Sequence record: NC_019399.1
Strand: one strand, 5' to 3'
Length of the DNA stretch: 64,000 nt
Source of the DNA: Escherichia phage vB_EcoM_ACG-C40
Shown: positions 2,864 to 32,139 of the stretch, one piece after another
Position numbering within the stretch: the first letter of the stretch is position 1
How the letters are laid out: the number at the start of each line of letters is the position of its first letter
Notes under the pieces: generated by a model
What the model was told of the DNA's origin: nothing
What the model saw: the letters and a program-made list of their open reading frames with translations, nothing else
Database searches by the model: none
Made by a program: the position numbers and the translations under genes

Positions 2864-3190
2864 TTATTTCATATTATTGAAATATTCTTCAGCAATTTCA
2901 TCATTATCATGATAAACTTTAGAAGACAGTTTAACATAACTTTCAGCAGTGAACATGTTAATCACAACCTTTACAGTATACCACTGACCGTCTTCATTAC
3001 CCATTACTGCATAAGTTTCAAACATCGGATGGTCAGGACCGATAACTTTAATATCATTCACTGTACGACCGAAATCTTCTGAAACACATTTCATAAAGAA
3101 GTTGAACAGCTCACCGTAATTATCCATTTCATTCTCCAAGTTGTTTTCTGTATCAGTAGTTGATAGTTGTATAGTACCATGGAAGGACAA
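2864..3190 (-). CDS. hypothetical acidic protein (108 aa)
   Basis: Intact ORF with ATG start at 3190. Confidence 0.5.
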   Translation of the reverse strand: MSFHGTIQLSTTDTENNLENEMDNYGELFNFFMKCVSEDFGRTVNDIKVIGPDHPMFETYAVMGNEDGQWYTVKVVINMFTAESYVKLSSKVYHDNDEIAEEYFNNMK

Positions 3191-3333
3191 GGATGTAAAC
3201 CGTTTTGTGAAAAAATTTTTAAAAAGTTTTGGGGAATTCTAGGGCAGGGAGGGGAAATCAAAGGATAGGATAATATATTATAAAGGGTAGAAACTAAATG
3301 ATGTCTAGAGAGGCCTGGAAAGGCCTAGATACC

Positions 3334-3364: not shown

Positions 3365-3673
3365 CCTTGCGGCAACCTTGTCGGGGTTCCACCTGCTAAG
3401 GCAAGTGTTTGTACGAAACGCCGGGATTCGAACCCGGTTATTAAGCAGTTGACGCTACTCAATATTTTTTAAAAGGCCATATCTCGACCATATCCGAACG
3501 TTCCGTCAAAAACGCTACTCGGCTTACGGCAAAGATATTTCCTCGAATCGATAATTCGGTGCGCCGTTTCTGCTGTGATGTAAGGGGACATTAACAAAAC
3601 ATAAAGATTTATTAATGCCAGTCCTTAAACAGGGAACATCAGTCCGACGACTTACCGGTAGCGACCCGGTTTC
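3365..3673 (-). ncRNA. candidate small stable RNA region downstream of tRNA-Arg
   Basis: About 300 nt with no ORF, a tRNA-like T-arm (CCGGG-TTCGAAT-CCCGG on minus strand), duplicated GAGTAGCGT motif, ends at terminator 3334..3360. Confidence 0.25.
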
Positions 3674-4024
3674 TTAATATTCTTTTAAAGCATCAATCTG
3701 TTCACGGCGTTTACGCCATAAATCAATTGCTTCATACGCAGATTCAGCATTTCGAATTAGCCGGCATTTATGTAAAGACTTATGATTTTGATATTGTGTA
3801 GATAATGGAATTGTATCTAAAAGGTCTTTACGATCAAAGTATTCGTAACCATCTAAACCAAATGAACGATTTTTGAGAAATTGCCAATGGCCAAATTCAT
3901 TTTCAACATAAACATAATCTGCATGCTGATAAAGTAAATTAATTACACGTTCAGAAATAGCAGTATCATTATGATTAAAATAGAATGTTAAATCATGAAC
4001 TACTAAATAAACATTACCTTTCAT
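3674..4024 (-). CDS. hypothetical protein (116 aa)
   Basis: Intact ORF immediately 3' of the tRNA cluster. Confidence 0.5.
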   Translation of the reverse strand: MKGNVYLVVHDLTFYFNHNDTAISERVINLLYQHADYVYVENEFGHWQFLKNRSFGLDGYEYFDRKDLLDTIPLSTQYQNHKSLHKCRLIRNAESAYEAIDLWRKRREQIDALKEY

Positions 4025-4042
4025 ATTTTCCTCACTTATAAT

Positions 4043-4118
4043 TGGTCGAGGCAGTAGGGATCGAACCTACGACCCAGGACTTAGAAGGTCCTTGCTCTTC
4101 CTTCTGAGCTATGCCCCG
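4043..4118 (-). tRNA. tRNA-Arg (anticodon UCU)
   Basis: 76-nt cloverleaf folded by hand; anticodon loop CTTCTAA; T-loop TTCGATC; encoded CCA. Confidence 0.8.
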
Positions 4119-4122
4119 TAAT

Positions 4123-4198
4123 TGGGGTGACCGATGGGAGTCGAACCCATGACTACGAGAATCACAATCTCGAGTTCTACCAACTGAACTACGGCCAC
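4123..4198 (-). tRNA. tRNA-His (anticodon GUG)
   Basis: 76 nt; acceptor GTGGCCG/CGGTCAC; anticodon loop TTGTGAT; discriminator C; CCA encoded; no encoded G-1. Confidence 0.7.
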
Positions 4199-4312
4199 AT
4201 TAATACCTACTCCAACAATCATGATGTCTTCACACGAAATTAAGAGAAGAGTGATCAGTTCAACCCCTATAATCGCGTCAAGTAGATATTAATGTGACAG
4301 TTGTCACAAATT

Positions 4313-4739: not shown

Positions 4740-4813
4740 TCTCCATACAAGGATTTGAACCTTGGACCTCCTGATCCCAAATCAGGCGCTCTACCAAACT
4801 GAGCTACACGGAG
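4740..4813 (-). tRNA. tRNA-Pro (anticodon UGG), CCA not encoded
   Basis: 74 nt; anticodon stem CCTGA/TCAGG, loop TTTGGGA; T-arm CAAGG-TTCAAAT-CCTTG. Confidence 0.75.
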
Positions 4814-4823
4814 TAAATTGAAT

Positions 4824-4897
<74 letters not shown>

Positions 4898-4902
4898 AAA
4901 TT

Positions 4903-4989
4903 TGGTGCGAGAAGTGGGACTCGAACCCACAAGGAAATCATTCCGCAGCATTTTAAGTGCTGTGCCTTTACCAATTTGACCATTCTCGC
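4903..4989 (-). tRNA. tRNA-Leu (anticodon UAA), long variable arm
   Basis: 87 nt; anticodon stem CAGCA/TGCTG, loop CTTAAAA; CCA encoded. Confidence 0.8.
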
Positions 4990-4995
4990 GTTATA

Positions 4996-5628
4996 TTATT
5001 TATTACGTGAAAAAGACTGTTCTATCAATTCTGGACACTTTCGTTCTATCCATTTTCTAGCTTTTTGTGGGCTTATACCTATTATTTTAGCAGCTTTACT
5101 AACCCATCCAAATTTAGAATAATCGATTTTAACTAATTCTTCGTAAATTTCATCAGTTAAAATCTTTTCATTAATATTTACCAGTAAATGATATAATTTG
5201 TTATCATTAGCAATTTTAATGAATCTTTTATAGTTTCCGCCTTTACTTAAACCTAATGAAGTAATTGCAGATGATATAGTAGCCGAATTTAATAATGCGT
5301 TTAAAATTTCTTCATCACTAACATTATAACGCTTTTTATTATTTTTAATATTTTTACCAGCAAAAGTATCAGTTTGCGAATGACAGTTTGGACATAATAA
5401 TCTTAAATTTGATTTAAGATGATTTTTGTTATTTCCATCAATATGGTCTAATTGTAGAACAATATGCTTATTTTGCCATTTTGAAATTTTACAAATTGCA
5501 CACTCATATGGAAAAATATTTTCTTTTATTATTTTGTCTTTTAGCTTTCCTGTACTAAAATTTGGATGTTTTCCTTCAAAAATTTCAGCTAATTTAGTAT
5601 CCATAATATGATTCCCAATTATTAACAA
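4996..5628 (-). CDS. HNH homing endonuclease with C-terminal helix-turn-helix-like DNA-binding region
   Basis: Zinc-finger HNH motif CAICK...LQLDHIDGNNKNH...NLRLLCPNCH; ORF start at 5628 is TTG, first ATG is at 5604. Confidence 0.75.
   Translation of the reverse strand: MLIIGNHIMDTKLAEIFEGKHPNFSTGKLKDKIIKENIFPYECAICKISKWQNKHIVLQLDHIDGNNKNHLKSNLRLLCPNCHSQTDTFAGKNIKNNKKRYNVSDEEILNALLNSATISSAITSLGLSKGGNYKRFIKIANDNKLYHLLVNINEKILTDEIYEELVKIDYSKFGWVSKAAKIIGISPQKARKWIERKCPELIEQSFSRNK
4996..5628 (-). mobile_element. freestanding homing-endonuclease gene abutting the 5' end of the tRNA cluster
   Basis: HNH ORF ends 6 nt from tRNA-Leu. Confidence 0.5.
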
Positions 5629-10719: not shown

Positions 10720-11310
10720 ATGCTCTTTACATTTTTTGATCCGATTGAATATGCGGCCAAAACGGTGAATAAAAACGCGCCGACTATTCCTATGACAGAT
10801 ATTTTTAGAAACTATAAAGACTATTTTAAGCGTGCTCTTGCGGGATATCGCTTACGTACTTATTACATTAAAGGTTCACCACGCCCGGAAGAATTAGCAA
10901 ATGCTATATATGGAAATCCACAGCTGTATTGGGTTTTATTGATGTGTAATGATAATTATGACCCGTATTATGGATGGATTACTTCACAAGAAGCTGCTTA
11001 TCAAGCATCTATACAAAAATACAAAAACGTAGGTGGAGACCAGATAGTATATCATGTGAATGAGAACGGTGAAAAATTTTATAATTTAATATCATACGAT
11101 GATAATCCATATGTTTGGTATGATAAAGGCGATAAAGCTAGAAAATATCCTCAATATGAAGGAGCACTTGCTGCGGTCGATACGTATGAAGCGGCTGTTC
11201 TTGAAAATGAAAAACTTCGTCAAATAAAAATAATAGCAAAATCAGACATCAATTCATTTATGAACGACCTTATACGTATAATGGAGAAATCTTATGGAAA
11301 TGATAAGTAA
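10720..11310 (+). CDS. 53: gp53 baseplate wedge protein
   Basis: 196-aa ORF with GGAGG RBS; T4 position. Confidence 0.9.
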   Translation: MLFTFFDPIEYAAKTVNKNAPTIPMTDIFRNYKDYFKRALAGYRLRTYYIKGSPRPEELANAIYGNPQLYWVLLMCNDNYDPYYGWITSQEAAYQASIQKYKNVGGDQIVYHVNENGEKFYNLISYDDNPYVWYDKGDKARKYPQYEGALAAVDTYEAAVLENEKLRQIKIIAKSDINSFMNDLIRIMEKSYGNDK

Positions 11311-13024
11311 TAACCTCAACTGGTTTGTTGGTGTTGTTGAAGATAGAATGGACCCATTAAAATTAGGTCGTGTTCGTGTTCGTGTGGTTGGTTTGCATCC
11401 ACCTCAAAGAGCACAAGGTGATGTAATGGGTATTCCAACTGAAAAATTACCATGGATGTCAGTTATTCAACCTATAACTTCTGCAGCAATGTCTGGAATT
11501 GGAGGTTCTGTTACTGGACCGGTAGAAGGAACTAGAGTTTATGGTCATTTTTTAGACAAATGGAAAACTAACGGAATTGTCCTTGGCACGTATGGTGGAA
11601 TAGTTCGCGAAAAACCGAATAGACTTGAAGGATTTTCTGACCCAACTGGGCAATATCCTAGACGTTTAGGAAATGACACGAACGTACTAAACCAAGGCGG
11701 AGAAGTAGGATATGATTCGTCTTCTAACATTATCCAAGATAGTAACTTAGACACCGCAATAAATCCCGATGATAGACCACTATCAGAGATTCCAACCGAT
11801 GATAATCCAAATATGTCAATGGCTGAAATGCTTCGCCGTGATGAAGGATTAAGACTAAAAGTTTATTGGGATACAGAAGGATATCCGACAATTGGTATTG
11901 GTCATCTTATCATGAAGCAGCCAGTTCGTGATATGAACCAAATTAATAAAGTTTTATCAAAACAAGTTGGTCGTGAAATTACCGGAAATCCAGGTTCTAT
12001 TACAATGGAAGAAGCGGTAACTTTATTTGAACGCGATTTGGCTGATATGCAACGTGACATTAAATCACATTCTAAAGTAGGACCAGTCTGGCAAGCTGTC
12101 AACCGTTCTCGTCAAATGGCATTAGAAAATATGGCATTTCAGATGGGTGTTGGTGGTGTAGCTAAATTTAACACAATGTTAACTGCTATGTTAGCCGGAG
12201 ATTGGGAAAAAGCATATAAAGCTGGTCGTGATTCATTGTGGTATCAACAAACAAAAGGCCGTGCATCCCGTGTTACCATGATTATTCTTACCGGAAATTT
12301 GGAATCATATGGTGTTGAAGTGAAAACTCCGGCTAGGTCTTTATCGGCAATGGCTGCGACTGCAGCTAAATCTTCTGACCCTGCTGACCCTCCTATTCCA
12401 AATGACTCGAGAATTTTATTCAAAGAACCAGTTTCTTCATATAAAGGCGAATATCCTTATGTGCATACAATGGAAACTGAAAGCGGACATATTCAGGAAT
12501 TTGATGATACTCCTGGGCAAGAACGATACAGATTAGTTCATCCGACTGGAACTTATGAAGAAGTATCACCGTCAGGAAGAAGAACAAGAAAAACTGTCGA
12601 TAATTTGTATGATATAACCAACGCTGATGGTAATTTTTTGGTAGCCGGTGATAAAAAGACTAACGTCGGTGGATCAGAAATTTATTACAACATGGATAAT
12701 CGTCTTCACCAAATAGATGGAAGCAATACAATATTTGTACGTGGAGACGAAACGAAAACTGTTGAAGGTAATGGAACTATCCTAGTCAAAGGTAATGTTA
12801 CTATTGTAGTTGAAGGTAATGCTGACATTACAGTTAAAGGAGATGCTACCACTTTAGTTGAAGGAAATCAAACTAACACAGTAAATGGAAATCTTTCTTG
12901 GAAAGTTGCTGGGACAGTTGATTGGGACGTTGGTGGTGATTGGACAGAAAAAATGGCATCTATGAGTTCTATTTCATCTGGTCAATACACAATTGATGGT
13001 AGCCGTATAGACGTAGGTTTATAA
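11294..13024 (+). CDS. 5: gp5 baseplate hub / tail lysozyme with C-terminal beta-helix spike
   Basis: 576 aa; lysozyme core DTEGYPTIGIGHL; C-terminal VxGxxxxx repeats. Confidence 0.95.
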   Translation: MEMISNNLNWFVGVVEDRMDPLKLGRVRVRVVGLHPPQRAQGDVMGIPTEKLPWMSVIQPITSAAMSGIGGSVTGPVEGTRVYGHFLDKWKTNGIVLGTYGGIVREKPNRLEGFSDPTGQYPRRLGNDTNVLNQGGEVGYDSSSNIIQDSNLDTAINPDDRPLSEIPTDDNPNMSMAEMLRRDEGLRLKVYWDTEGYPTIGIGHLIMKQPVRDMNQINKVLSKQVGREITGNPGSITMEEAVTLFERDLADMQRDIKSHSKVGPVWQAVNRSRQMALENMAFQMGVGGVAKFNTMLTAMLAGDWEKAYKAGRDSLWYQQTKGRASRVTMIILTGNLESYGVEVKTPARSLSAMAATAAKSSDPADPPIPNDSRILFKEPVSSYKGEYPYVHTMETESGHIQEFDDTPGQERYRLVHPTGTYEEVSPSGRRTRKTVDNLYDITNADGNFLVAGDKKTNVGGSEIYYNMDNRLHQIDGSNTIFVRGDETKTVEGNGTILVKGNVTIVVEGNADITVKGDATTLVEGNQTNTVNGNLSWKVAGTVDWDVGGDWTEKMASMSSISSGQYTIDGSRIDVGL

Positions 13025-13027
13025 ATA
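13020..13027 (+). promoter_or_regulatory. late promoter (TATAAATA) overlapping the gene 5 stop codon
   Basis: Exact TATAAATA 17 nt upstream of the endonuclease ATG at 13044. Confidence 0.5.
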
Positions 13028-13043
13028 ATTCCAGAGGTGAATT

Positions 13044-13910
13044 ATGAAAAAATCTAACACAGTTCAATTTAGATACATATATAAAACAACCGTTACTAAT
13101 CCGAAAGGATTAGTACGGGTTTATATTGGTAAACATGAATCTAGATATTTTGATTTAGAAAATGATAAGTATAGAGGTTCCGGTGATTATATTAAAAAGA
13201 TACGTAATAAACCTGGTTATAAAATAGATTTTGAAATAATTGAATTTGTTTCTACTTATGAAATTCTCAATTCAAGAGAAAGATATTGGATTTCGAAATA
13301 TAAATCATCTGATATTCTATGTACCAATATAAAATCCGGCGGTGATGGTTTTTCATCCGAAGATTTGAAGAGAATGTGGTCTAATCCTGAATATAGGAAA
13401 GCTCAATTGAAGGCATTAGCTAAATCAACGTCAACTAAAGAATTTTCAGAGAAAATATCTAAAATAAACAAAGAAAGATGCGCATCGCCAGAATATCGAA
13501 AGAAAATGAGTAATGCGATGAAAACTGCTTTTGAAAATGATCCAACATTAAAAATTCGTATTTCTAATACCGTTAAATCTTTATGGAAATCCGATGAATA
13601 TAGAAACAAATTAATCAATCATCCAGGAAAAATAGAAGGAACGAAACAATCATGGAATGATCCTTTGATAAGAAAATCGAGATTAGATGCTAGAAATAAA
13701 AAACTAAGATCAGTTGAACCTTGGATTAGTATAGAAAAAGTCAAAAAACTTTGGGAGGATTTGGGAAAACCACATCCACAGAAATACAAATGGTTTAGAG
13801 AAAAAGCAATTGAACACGACCTCCCGGATGTAAGTTATAACGCAATTTTAAAAGCGTTGAAAAAATGTGATTATAAATTTACATCATTAGAGAATTCAAC
13901 AATTGGCTAA
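13044..13910 (+). CDS. GIY-YIG homing endonuclease (Seg-like) with four C-terminal repeats
   Basis: N-terminal FRYIYK...VYIGKH...YRGSG...RERYWISKY; repeats WSNPEYRK / SPEYRKK / KSDEYRNK / NDPLIRK. Confidence 0.7.
   Translation: MKKSNTVQFRYIYKTTVTNPKGLVRVYIGKHESRYFDLENDKYRGSGDYIKKIRNKPGYKIDFEIIEFVSTYEILNSRERYWISKYKSSDILCTNIKSGGDGFSSEDLKRMWSNPEYRKAQLKALAKSTSTKEFSEKISKINKERCASPEYRKKMSNAMKTAFENDPTLKIRISNTVKSLWKSDEYRNKLINHPGKIEGTKQSWNDPLIRKSRLDARNKKLRSVEPWISIEKVKKLWEDLGKPHPQKYKWFREKAIEHDLPDVSYNAILKALKKCDYKFTSLENSTIG
13044..13910 (+). mobile_element. freestanding homing-endonuclease gene between gene 5 and the 5.4/6 block
   Basis: GIY-YIG ORF flanked by conserved structural genes. Confidence 0.5.
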
Positions 13911-14439
13911 TATACTTCCAATGAGCGCTGATTTAGGAGAATCCATGGAAGGTTCTTCTATCGACGTCACCTTTACCGCTCAATTAGAAACAGGTGAAAC
14001 GTTAGTATCTATAAATATAACTAGTTACGAAGAAACTCCTGGGGTTTTAGTAGAAGAAAATCGCTTATACGGAACATATGAATCTGTGTTTGGATTTGGA
14101 AATGACGCGTTGAAATATCGTTTAGGCGATGAATTTAAAACTGCTGCTTCATGGGAAGAACTTCCTACTGATTCTGATACTCAGTTGTATTTATGGAAAG
14201 CTCCTCAAAACCTCCAGAAGACATTCACTTACGAAGTAACATTAATATATGACTACCAAGAACAAAGTGAATCTGGAGGTTCTGGCAGTAATTCTAGGTC
14301 ATCTTCTGATACTACTGAACCGACAGATCCTCCTGCTCCAGTAAGAAAAACTCTCGTTAAAAATTATACTAAAACTATAGTTGGAAATTGGAGTCGTTGG
14401 GCTAATAAATTAAGAAGCTATGTGTATGAGAGGTCATAG
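13903..14439 (+). CDS. hypothetical protein; acidic N-half, Ser/Gly-rich linker
   Basis: 178-aa ORF; a stronger RBS (AGGAGAA) precedes the internal ATG at 13945. Confidence 0.55.
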   Translation: MANILPMSADLGESMEGSSIDVTFTAQLETGETLVSINITSYEETPGVLVEENRLYGTYESVFGFGNDALKYRLGDEFKTAASWEELPTDSDTQLYLWKAPQNLQKTFTYEVTLIYDYQEQSESGGSGSNSRSSSDTTEPTDPPAPVRKTLVKNYTKTIVGNWSRWANKLRSYVYERS

Positions 14440-14733
14440 ATGTCAGGATTAAGTTATGATAAATGTGTTACTGCTGGTCATGAAGCATGGCCTCCAACAG
14501 TTGTGAATGCTACACAAAGTAAAGTATTCACTGGAGGAATTGCTGTTCTCGTAGCAGGTGATCTAATTACAGAACATACAGAAATTAAAAAGCCATATGA
14601 AACACATGGCGGAGTGACACAACCCAGAACTTCTAAGGTATATGTCACTGGAAAGAAAGCTGTTCAAATGGCTGATCCAATATCATGCGGTGATACTGTG
14701 GCTCAGGCATCATCTAAAGTATTCATTAAATAG
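14440..14733 (+). CDS. 5.4: gp5.4 PAAR-like spike tip protein
   Basis: 97-aa ORF directly upstream of gene 6; T4 gp5.4 length. Confidence 0.8.
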
Positions 14734-14741
14734 GATTTAAA

Positions 14742-16724
14742 ATGGCAAATACCCCTGTAAATTATCAATTAACAAGAACAGCAAATGCTATTCCCGAGAT
14801 ATTCGTCGGGGGTACGTTTGCTGAAATAAAACAAAACCTCATTGAATGGCTTAATGGCCAAAATGAATTTTTGGATTATGATTTTGAAGGCTCAAGATTA
14901 AACGTTCTGTGTGACCTTTTAGCTTATAATACATTGTACATTCAACAGTTTGGTAATGCTGCTGTGTATGAAAGCTTTATGCGTACTGCTAACTTACGAA
15001 GTTCAGTTGTTCAAGCTGCACAAGATAACGGATATTTACCTACTTCAAAATCCGCTGCGCAGACCGAAATTATGTTAACATGCACCGACGCATTGAATAG
15101 GAATTACATTACTATTCCTCGCGGAACTCGCTTTTTAGCATATGCAAAAGATACTTCTGTTAATCCATATAACTTCGTTTCTACCGAAGACGTTATTGCT
15201 ATTCGTGATAAAAATAACCAATATTTTCCGCGTTTAAAATTGGCCCAGGGACGTATAGTAAGAACTGAAATCATTTATGATAAATTAACACCTATTATCA
15301 TTTATGATAAAAATATTGATAGAAACCAGGTTAAATTATACGTTGATGGAGCAGAATGGATTAACTGGACAAGAAAGTCAATGGTTCATGCTGGTTCTAC
15401 ATCGACAATTTACTACATGCGTGAAACTATTGATGGAAATACTGAATTCTATTTTGGTGAAGGTGAAATTTCTGTTAATGCTTCTGAAGGAGCTTTGACC
15501 GCTAATTATATCGGAGGTCTTAAACCTACTCAGAACTCTACGATTGTTATTGAGTACATCAGTACTAATGGTGCTGACGCGAACGGAGCAGTCGGATTTT
15601 CATACGCAGATACATTAACAAATATAACTGTCATCAATATTAATGAAAATCCAAACGATGACCCAGATTTTGTTGGGGCAGATGGCGGCGGTGATCCAGA
15701 AGATATTGAGCGTATCCGCGAATTGGGTACTATTAAACGCGAAACCCAGCAACGCTGCGTAACTGCGACTGACTATGATACATTCGTTTCAGAGAGATTT
15801 GGTTCTATTATTCAAGCAGTTCAGACTTTCACTGATTCTACTAAACCTGGTTATGCATTTATTGCTGCTAAACCTAAATCAGGTCTGTATTTAACTACTG
15901 TACAGCGTGAAGATATTAAAAATTATCTCAAAGACTATAATTTAGCTCCTATTACGCCATCAATTATTTCTCCTAATTATCTTTTTATTAAGACTAATTT
16001 AAAAGTCACATATGCTTTAAATAAGCTGCAAGAATCCGAACAGTGGCTCGAAGGTCAAATAATTGATAAAATTGATCGTTATTATACCGAAGACGTAGAA
16101 ATTTTTAATTCATCTTTCGCTAAATCTAAGATGTTGACATATGTAGATGATGCAGATCATTCTATCATTGGCTCATCCGCGACAATTCAAATTGTTCGTG
16201 AAGTACAAAACTTCTATAAAACGCCTGAAGCAGGTATTAAATACAATAATCAAATAAAAGATCGTTCTATGGAATCTAATACGTTTTCATTTAATTCTGG
16301 ACGAAAGGTTGTAAATCCTGATACTGGTTTAGAAGAAGATGTATTATATGACGTTCGCATAGTATCAACAGACCGAGATTCTAAAGGAATTGGTAAAGTT
16401 ATTATTGGTCCATTTGCTTCTGGCGATGTTACAGAAAATGAAAACATTCAGCCATATACAGGCAACGATTTTAACAAATTAGCAAATTCTGATGGACGCG
16501 ACAAATACTATGTTATCGGTGAAATAAATTATCCAGCTGATGTGATTTATTGGAATATCGCTAAAATTAATTTAACATCTGAAAAATTTGAAGTTCAGAC
16601 CATCGAATTATATTCTGACCCAACCGATGATGTTATCTTTACTCGCGACGGTTCACTGATTGTATTTGAAAATGACTTACGTCCACAATACTTAACTATC
16701 GATTTGGAGCCTATATCACAATGA
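14742..16724 (+). CDS. 6: gp6 baseplate wedge protein
   Basis: 660 aa; T4 order and length. Confidence 0.95.
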   Translation: MANTPVNYQLTRTANAIPEIFVGGTFAEIKQNLIEWLNGQNEFLDYDFEGSRLNVLCDLLAYNTLYIQQFGNAAVYESFMRTANLRSSVVQAAQDNGYLPTSKSAAQTEIMLTCTDALNRNYITIPRGTRFLAYAKDTSVNPYNFVSTEDVIAIRDKNNQYFPRLKLAQGRIVRTEIIYDKLTPIIIYDKNIDRNQVKLYVDGAEWINWTRKSMVHAGSTSTIYYMRETIDGNTEFYFGEGEISVNASEGALTANYIGGLKPTQNSTIVIEYISTNGADANGAVGFSYADTLTNITVININENPNDDPDFVGADGGGDPEDIERIRELGTIKRETQQRCVTATDYDTFVSERFGSIIQAVQTFTDSTKPGYAFIAAKPKSGLYLTTVQREDIKNYLKDYNLAPITPSIISPNYLFIKTNLKVTYALNKLQESEQWLEGQIIDKIDRYYTEDVEIFNSSFAKSKMLTYVDDADHSIIGSSATIQIVREVQNFYKTPEAGIKYNNQIKDRSMESNTFSFNSGRKVVNPDTGLEEDVLYDVRIVSTDRDSKGIGKVIIGPFASGDVTENENIQPYTGNDFNKLANSDGRDKYYVIGEINYPADVIYWNIAKINLTSEKFEVQTIELYSDPTDDVIFTRDGSLIVFENDLRPQYLTIDLEPISQ

Positions 16725-28998: not shown

Positions 28999-32139
<3,141 letters not shown>

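Follow-up and report, generated by a model that had tools for sequence, protein, structure and literature searches.

The Seg enzymes of phage T4 and the process of intronless homing have been reviewed and provide the precedent for the locus described here (PMC2988022). Among the closest described systems, T4 SegC was reported to be active (PMC2988022), and I-TevI, the endonuclease of the T4 td intron, is expressed late from a TATAAATA box directly upstream of its gene, where the box overlaps a sequence resembling its homing site (PMC2988022). We analyzed a 64,000-nt stretch of Escherichia phage vB_EcoM_ACG-C40 (NC_019399.1), a segment of a Tequatrovirus genome that is called the window in the following, with coordinates counted from its first letter. 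An open reading frame (ORF) of 288 amino acids on its plus strand (ATG at 13044, stop at 13908-13910) is probably a functional free-standing homing endonuclease gene of the Seg-type GIY-YIG class, and it appears to form part of a small mobile cassette that occupies the junction between genes 5 and 5.1 in a T6-like phage. Its homing, the cleavage by its product, and the activity of its promoter are inferred.

Judging from sequence and structure model, the N-terminal domain (residues ~10-103; 13071-13352, plus strand) is a GIY-YIG nuclease domain with the alpha/beta fold and the motifs of this family, i.e. Y11-I12-Y13, Y27-I28-G29, Y43-x-G45-S46-G47, E79, and N95. The first two motifs were invariant or nearly so in 13 detectable homologues as well as in an alignment of 66 sequences. 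Columns that were invariant in the larger alignment corresponded to Y13, Y27, G29, Y43, G45, S46, G47, E79, N95, G99, and G100, a set which comprises the GIY, YIG, Glu, and Asn positions together with the Seg-type Y-x-GSG motif. Alignment by hidden Markov model (HMM) placed E79 and N95 on the erE and yNia motifs of I-TevI, where the counterparts are E75 and N90. The AlphaFold model of the N-terminal domain had a predicted local distance difference test score (pLDDT) of ~90, and the two strands carrying GIY (residues 10-18) and YIG (residues 24-31) scored ~91.

Profile searches led to the same family. The protein matched PHROG 314 ('homing endonuclease') at 1.2e-25, and a profile built from the 13 homologues matched the catalytic domain of I-TevI (1LN0) with an E-value of 1.7e-6. 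Eight of these 13 homologues had a match to PF19835 (SegE_GIY-YIG) and four to PF01541. A second-round profile search collected 2861 proteins, many of which contained PF19835, PF01541, NUMOD3, or the I-TevI DNA-binding domain. T4 SegC was found by BLASTP, with 30% identity across 96 aa (E = 9e-5). An earlier note on this stretch had read the ORF as a Seg-type GIY-YIG endonuclease of 288 aa; the coordinates were confirmed, and the family assignment is supported by the homologue profile against 1LN0, the SegE models in relatives, and the SegC alignment.

In T4, the genes of this interval are arranged in the order 5, 5.1, segC, 5.3, 5.4, and 6; the junction of 5 and 5.1 is empty with a spacer of just 34 nt, and segC and 5.3 are located further downstream. 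The order in the window is 5, seg-like ORF, 5.1, 5.4, and 6, without segC and 5.3, and T6 is arranged identically. Alignment with T4, which the earlier note had suggested, thus revealed a gene content different from that of T4 and matching that of T6. The same note had counted only this ORF and one of 178 aa between genes 5 and 5.4, which holds with gene 5.1 as the other, the figure of 178 aa being dependent on a TTG start at 13903. Across 12500-15000, identity with the window reached 99.4% for Shigella phage ESh30 and Yersinia phage PYPS2T and 98.4% for T6. The T6 record labels the ORF as 'seg-like hypothetical protein ... T6ncORF142', and other records as 'homing endonuclease' or 'putative Seg-like homing endonuclease, GIY-YIG family'. 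The gene is already annotated as seg-like in public records, yet uncharacterised, and it is a fairly ordinary member of a well-known type.

The inserted block comprises 902 nt (13000-13901, plus strand; the two junctions were aligned with T4, Elenatom, and T6) and stands in place of the 13 nt ATCGAGGATTGAC found in T4, T2, and Elenatom, with its limits being defined against phages that lack the homing endonuclease gene. On the left side, identity with T4 and Elenatom extends up to 12999, where CAATTGATGG is followed by TAGCCGT. On the right side, TTCAACA borders on ATTGGCTAA, and identity with both phages resumes at 13902 from ATTGGCTAATATACTTCC. The left part of the block recodes the 3' end of gene 5 (11294-13024, plus strand), the gene for the tail-spike protein gp5 (baseplate hub, tail lysozyme). 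In the window, the recoded end (13000-13024, plus strand) reads GGT AGC CGT ATA GAC GTA GGT TTA TAA (DGSRIDVGL and stop), versus GGA TCG AGG ATT GAC ATT GGC TAA (DGSRIDIG and stop) in T4. The changes in the last eight codons are mainly synonymous, with one I-to-V substitution and one added Leu codon. ATT GGC TAA (13902-13910, plus strand), ancestrally the final two codons and the stop of gene 5, has become the end of the endonuclease ORF, which accordingly terminates on the ancestral gene 5 stop.

Homing endonucleases typically target conserved sequences in essential genes. The gene 5 ending SGQYT(I/V)DGSRIDIG, followed by the stop, was present in 15 loci from several genera without the endonuclease gene, with whole gp5 proteins that were mostly 57-78% identical. 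At the DNA level, the last ~16 codons of gene 5 and the 34-nt spacer, at 3140-3265 of the T4 extract, were near-invariant between Tequatrovirus and Mosigvirus-like phages, synonymous sites included. From the position of the junction and the recoding, we presume that the last codons of gene 5 contain the target, and a cut of the allele without the gene would be predicted in or near GATGGATCGAGGATTGACATTGGCTAA.

Several further features of the junctions were observed. The sequence TAAATAATTCCA (13022-13033) is a near-copy of the ancestral TAATATACTTCCA (13908-13920), and the two are preceded by GTAGGT and ATTGGC, respectively, so that the gene is bracketed by an imperfect duplication of the presumed target. 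Such a duplication around the cassette is not predicted by simple homing. When the last 35 nt of the ORF were compared with the gene 5 end upstream of ATTGGC, ~13 of 22 positions agreed in AT-rich sequence, a similarity too weak to call. In the Tequatrovirus and Mosigvirus-like phages with the near-invariant DNA, an ORF in the frame of gene 5.1 begins with the ATG in ...TTGATGG..., exactly at the left junction of the cassette, and would encode a gp5.1 form of 184-185 aa, which would be severed by the insertion. In carriers, gp5 ends with ...IDVGL or ...VDVGL, versus the conserved ...IDIG elsewhere. Invasion hence leaves an essential structural protein with one residue exchanged and one added, at the end of the gp5 beta-helix that is bound by the gp5.4 tip (PMC12407873).

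Among the records of the phage collection, 486 had the 111-nt T4-type junction without interruption (485 of them at an identity of at least 99%), and 31 had the gene, besides partial CEV1 contigs. Near-identical phages differed in the presence or absence of the gene, which always occupied one junction. Three cassette variants were found: (i) the type of the window and T6; (ii) the type of F2, ZQ3, and CEV1; and (iii) a Logan contig from SRR10822052. Among the three, identity amounts to 73-83% for the nucleotides of the coding sequences and to 74-86% for the proteins. The junctions are identical, and all three variants keep the transition from GATGG to TAGCCGT, the extra Leu codon, TATAAATA, CAGAGGTRAATTATG, an internal GATTATAAATTT, and the terminal GGCTAA.

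The ORF was intact (287-288 aa) in all copies examined. The ratio of nonsynonymous to synonymous substitution rates (dN/dS) was 0.04-0.12 in most domain-by-pair comparisons, with no ratio for the N-terminal domain of the window against F2, where dS was saturated. Judged by these ratios, the ORF is under strong purifying selection. Comparison of the parts further indicates that the variants are mosaics of one another: the N-terminal domain of the window is nearer to the SRR10822052 variant (81% nucleotide identity versus 71% to F2), whereas its repeat region and C-terminus are nearer to F2 (87-93% versus 74%). Between F2 and CEV1, 421 of 421 cassette nucleotides were shared, and the gene 5 flank was 87-99% identical. 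This uniform cassette in diverged flanks and the mosaic variants may hint, if indirectly, at preferential inheritance in mixed infection. We also considered T4_ev151 as a natural cross that could display a co-conversion tract. This candidate was dismissed, since more than 100 differences from T4, T6, and the window are scattered over its 6-kb locus and make a tract unreadable.

Four records (ESh36, 215Ecol030PP, LF73P3, and LF73P1) carry scars of natural deletions that removed the gene. In these, the recoded gene 5 end is followed by TTATAAAT and the last 35 nt of the ORF; in the ESh36 extract, the scar is located at 1195-1240. The break lies between two 8-nt direct repeats of TTATAAAT, the first at 13019-13026 and the second, the other end point of the deletions, at 13871-13878 (plus strand). 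LF73P1 combines F2-type recoding on the left with a T6-type tail on the right, so that at least two independent deletions have to be assumed. As the scar alleles keep the altered site, they are predicted to be resistant to re-invasion. The opposite polarity, with the 35-nt tail in ESh36-type phages being the ancestral state before insertion, was rejected: the tail encodes the endonuclease C-terminus conserved in three variants, and the break lies exactly between the direct repeats.

The nuclease domain is followed by a helical array of 17-residue repeats (residues ~105-224; 13356-13715, plus strand), with strong copies of the form [WC]-x-x-[PD]-E-Y-R-x-K. Self-comparison of residues 101-230 gave the best diagonals at offsets 69, 34, 35, 18, 17, and 23, with scores of 38, 32, 31, 27, 20, and 15, respectively; the 95th percentile of the best score in shuffled sequences was 30. 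Three clear copies were located at residues ~105, 139, and 174, i.e. 34-35 aa apart (SEDLKRMWSNPEYRK, SKINKERCASPEYRK, and SNTVKSLWKSDEYRN), and a fourth, weak copy at ~197 (KQSWNDPLIRK, score 15). Degenerate units (KEFSEKISK, DPTLKIRIS) are interspersed between the copies, which points to an underlying period of ~17 aa and about six units, whose cores begin at residues 115, 133, 149, 167, 184, and 206. Each unit is helical in the model, with pLDDT values of 91-95 for residues 140-190. The 'four repeats of about 17 aa' of the earlier note were therefore roughly right in their period but understated the array, which has about six units, three of them strong and one weak. Downstream of the array, a three-helix module (residues ~229-275; 13728-13868, plus strand) is probably of the helix-turn-helix or winged-helix type, an assignment that we make with low confidence.

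The repeat units appear to be related to NUMOD3 (IENR2, PF07460), with which they share a period of ~17 residues and a core, [ST]-x-[ED]-x-[RK]-x-[KR]-h-S, that is in register. An HMM built from 27 canonical NUMOD3 units scored 9.8 bits on the protein, a value equalled by 1 of 2000 composition-preserving shuffles. Only canonical G[KR]..S.E units entered this HMM, with the ERC...EF[RK] units from the orthologous positions of close relatives excluded. Two relatives, P0008 and P0011, have true NUMOD3 at the aligned repeat positions, and two others, P0124 and P0259, mix both repeat types. The repeats differ from NUMOD3 in that the Pfam model found no match here, and in that a W-x-D-P-E-Y-R signature takes the place of G-K-x-H-S-x-E.

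Units of the form W-x-D-P-E-[YF]-R-x-K-h-S also occur in metagenomic proteins, in long perfect 17-residue tandem arrays that are joined to HNH, T7 endonuclease I-like, GIY-YIG, intein-HNH, Mom-type, or REase_MTES_1575 domains. With one such array as the query, 5023 cluster representatives were retrieved at E ≤ 0.001. A dedicated model for W-x-D-P-E-Y-R arrays does not exist in Pfam, which assigns them to GerD (with up to 82 bits, sometimes above threshold) or to STI1-HOP_DP. In the literature, a search for the repeat motif brought up no relevant match. Possibly, the 17-residue unit is a distinct, unmodelled modular DNA-binding repeat, a sibling of NUMOD3 swapped among GIY-YIG, HNH, T7-endonuclease-I-like, intein-HNH, and Mom-type proteins. 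On this view, target choice would be set by the array, the portion of the gene with the latest exchange, and the array might also bind the diverged target copy at the gene's own late promoter in the manner of I-TevI. We offer this proposal tentatively, as one that is more doubtful than probable.

Combining these elements, the following course of events can be proposed. Synthesis of the protein would take place late in infection and depend on its own TATAAATA box, on late read-through of gene 5, or on both. Its target would be the empty site of a co-infecting phage, where the NUMOD3-like helices and the C-terminal helix-turn-helix would attach to a long, asymmetric stretch of DNA around the end of gene 5, and the tethered nuclease domain would cut nearby on the empty allele. 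Recombinational repair would copy the cassette from the carrier genome, as in intronless homing, and the carrier itself would be spared with its own site split and recoded. Autorepression is conceivable in addition, given a late promoter that overlaps a diverged copy of the presumed target.

Several points weigh against a functional homing endonuclease of this kind. A Pfam scan of the protein gave no GIY-YIG or NUMOD match at E ≤ 1, PF01541 and PF19835 included, and the NCBIfam group I intron endonuclease model reached 19.7 bits against a cut-off of 56. No counterpart of the catalytic Arg27 of I-TevI was identified among the conserved residues, the region being a low-confidence loop. Free-standing Seg enzymes are able to cut hundreds of bp away from their own gene, which bears on the placement of the target. 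No publication on the gene was found in the literature searched by name, accession, and locus. Finally, gene 5 is itself late and no plus-strand terminator separates it from the ORF, so that a promoter of its own is not strictly needed. As to the first of these points, the earlier note had named the lack of a GIY-YIG profile hit as evidence that would speak against its reading. A direct Pfam match is indeed absent; the homologue profiles and the motifs nonetheless support the domain, indirectly but more strongly. Two features probably keep Pfam from recognizing the protein: a spacer between GIY and YIG that exceeds that of relatives by five residues, and divergence of the loop behind YIG. As to the arginine, the segment of I-TevI with R27 is an insertion relative to this family, R34 and R44 are unconserved among relatives, and T4 SegC, reported as active, shows the same pattern. 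The lack of a conserved Arg would also suit a domesticated DNA-binding protein, such as a regulator or a factor for the exclusion of competitor phages, that has lost its role as a homing nuclease. Any function would be compatible with the purifying selection seen in all domains, I-TevI is also a repressor at its own late promoter (PMC2988022), and T6 SegB was recently assigned a role in the amplification of anti-defence genes (PMC13096335). Yet we consider domestication improbable: the catalytic Tyr, Glu, and Asn are invariant in the 66 relatives; a patchy distribution (31 of ~520 records), identical junctions across backgrounds, and mosaic exchange form the signature of a selfish element; and the recurrent clean loss speaks against an indispensable function. 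That loss, in four records and by at least two independent events, together with the failure of the curated Pfam models, could instead mark an inactive remnant of a homing endonuclease in decay. This we regard as very improbable, as every copy examined retains the full-length ORF with intact catalytic motifs, and dN/dS stays at ~0.04-0.12 over distances at which dS goes up to saturation.

If the gene is an active homing endonuclease gene, as we favor, its expression could still depend on gene 5 alone. The box TATAAATA (13020-13027, plus strand), which is of the T4 late-promoter type, overlaps the gene 5 stop TAA (13022-13024), and it spans this new stop because of the added TTA (Leu) codon. 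It is followed by the Shine-Dalgarno sequence GAGGTG (13034-13039, plus strand), in which GAGG (13034-13037) ends 6 nt before the ATG. The exact box and its overlap with the stop had been seen in the earlier note; the spacing between box and ATG amounts to 16 nt (13028-13043), not 17. A scan of 12700-14800 for sigma-70 promoters and terminators revealed nothing on the plus strand above shuffle level, and folding of 12985-13075 gave no hairpin that would mask the ribosome binding site in the way of I-TevI or segB (z = -0.03). Since gene 5 precedes the ORF in the same orientation and no terminator-like site separates the two, the box might not be a working promoter and the gene might be translated only from read-through of the late gene 5 mRNA. 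Judging from the position of T4 late start sites relative to their boxes, a transcript from this box would begin only a few nt before the Shine-Dalgarno sequence. Moreover, seven free-standing endonuclease genes of T4 are thought to lack promoters of their own, with read-through proposed for segC, segF, and segG (PMC2988022). We nevertheless find this explanation rather unlikely. The box is exact, exists only through the extra Leu codon, and is invariant in the three cassette variants, as is CAGAGGTRAATTATG, while adjoining synonymous sites vary. On the plus strand of the window, TATAAATA occurs 15 times versus 7.75 occurrences expected per strand from base composition, and on the minus strand seven times, which places the box above chance level. 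Ten of the 15 plus-strand boxes sit 14-28 nt ahead of an ORF start, and the geometry found here matches that of the nine others, which include spacings of 14 nt (box 34242) and 17 nt (box 50077); the boxes at 32132 and 37711 likewise overlap the TAA of the upstream gene. The late-promoter-like box proposed in the earlier note is thus well supported, and a working late promoter at TATAAATA is likely.

A near-consensus late box, TATAAATT, was also noted inside the 3' end of the ORF (13872-13879), 65 nt before the ATG of gene 5.1 at 13945, and it is kept in the three variants as GATTATAAATTT. It might be an embedded promoter of gene 5.1, a situation for which other endonuclease genes of T4 provide described examples, or may just be coding for D-Y-K-F. 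Gene 5.1 (PHROG 1168; 13945-14439, plus strand) forms the downstream flank of the cassette. A start at TTG 13903 yields 178 aa, and the ATG at 13945, which is located behind TAGGAG and corresponds to the start annotated in T4 and T6, yields 164 aa; the latter is more probably the true start. Gene 5.4, encoding the PAAR spike tip, follows at 14440-14733, and then gene 6 from 14742 onward. On the minus strand, ORFs of 71 aa (13403-13618) and 56 aa (13619-13789) lie fully within the endonuclease gene and showed no sign of being genes.

Two observations concern other endonuclease genes of the gene 5-6 interval. T4 segC (140 aa) and gene 5.3 (56 aa) correspond to one continuous ORF of 196 aa in T4_ev151 (...GPRGPRGKTLKMCGANN...; extracts T4 3697-4292 and T4_ev151 3427-4017), which suggests that T4 gene 5.3 is the C-terminal DNA-binding portion of SegC, cut off by a frameshift. 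In the Mosigvirus-like IMGVR_UViG_2706795394_000001, a SegC-like ORF of 225 aa (4789-5466; 37% identity over 129 aa) is located between 5.4 and 6, which indicates a third endonuclease insertion site in this interval.

For the model of intronless homing in T-even phages, the locus would add a further free-standing endonuclease of the Seg type, located at a new site. The available genomes catch each stage of the life cycle: the site is untouched in 486 records and occupied, by three mosaic variants, in 31, and four scars retain a recoded site that is presumably resistant. In practical terms, the locus is of modest value, offering a candidate nuclease for a long site and a widespread repeat module that domain libraries miss or call GerD.

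With T4 SegC, the gene shares its free-standing GIY-YIG organization, the interval between genes 5 and 6, and the succession of motifs Y-I-G ... Y-x-G-S-G ... E ... N, and with the Seg family as a whole (SegA-SegG) the presence/absence polymorphism among T-even phages. It differs from segC in its position, at the junction of 5 and 5.1 instead of between 5.1 and 5.4, and both genes apparently occur together in T4_ev151 and, by match length, in LH2, Manna, CJY920, and SP21535. The DNA-binding half of its product is different and about twice as long, and the nuclease domain has the 5-residue GIY-YIG insertion. Furthermore, segC was described as promoter-less (PMC2988022), whereas this gene has a late-promoter-like box of its own. 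I-TevI is the best match of solved structure to the nuclease domain and has the same modular plan of an N-terminal nuclease, NUMOD3-type helices, and a C-terminal helix-turn-helix; as in I-TevI, the box upstream of the gene also overlaps a diverged copy of the presumed target. Unlike I-TevI, the gene is not intronic, and it has neither a zinc finger nor an RBS-masking hairpin nor an identified R27 equivalent. Where I-TevI has one NUMOD3 helix, the protein encoded in the window has about six repeat units.

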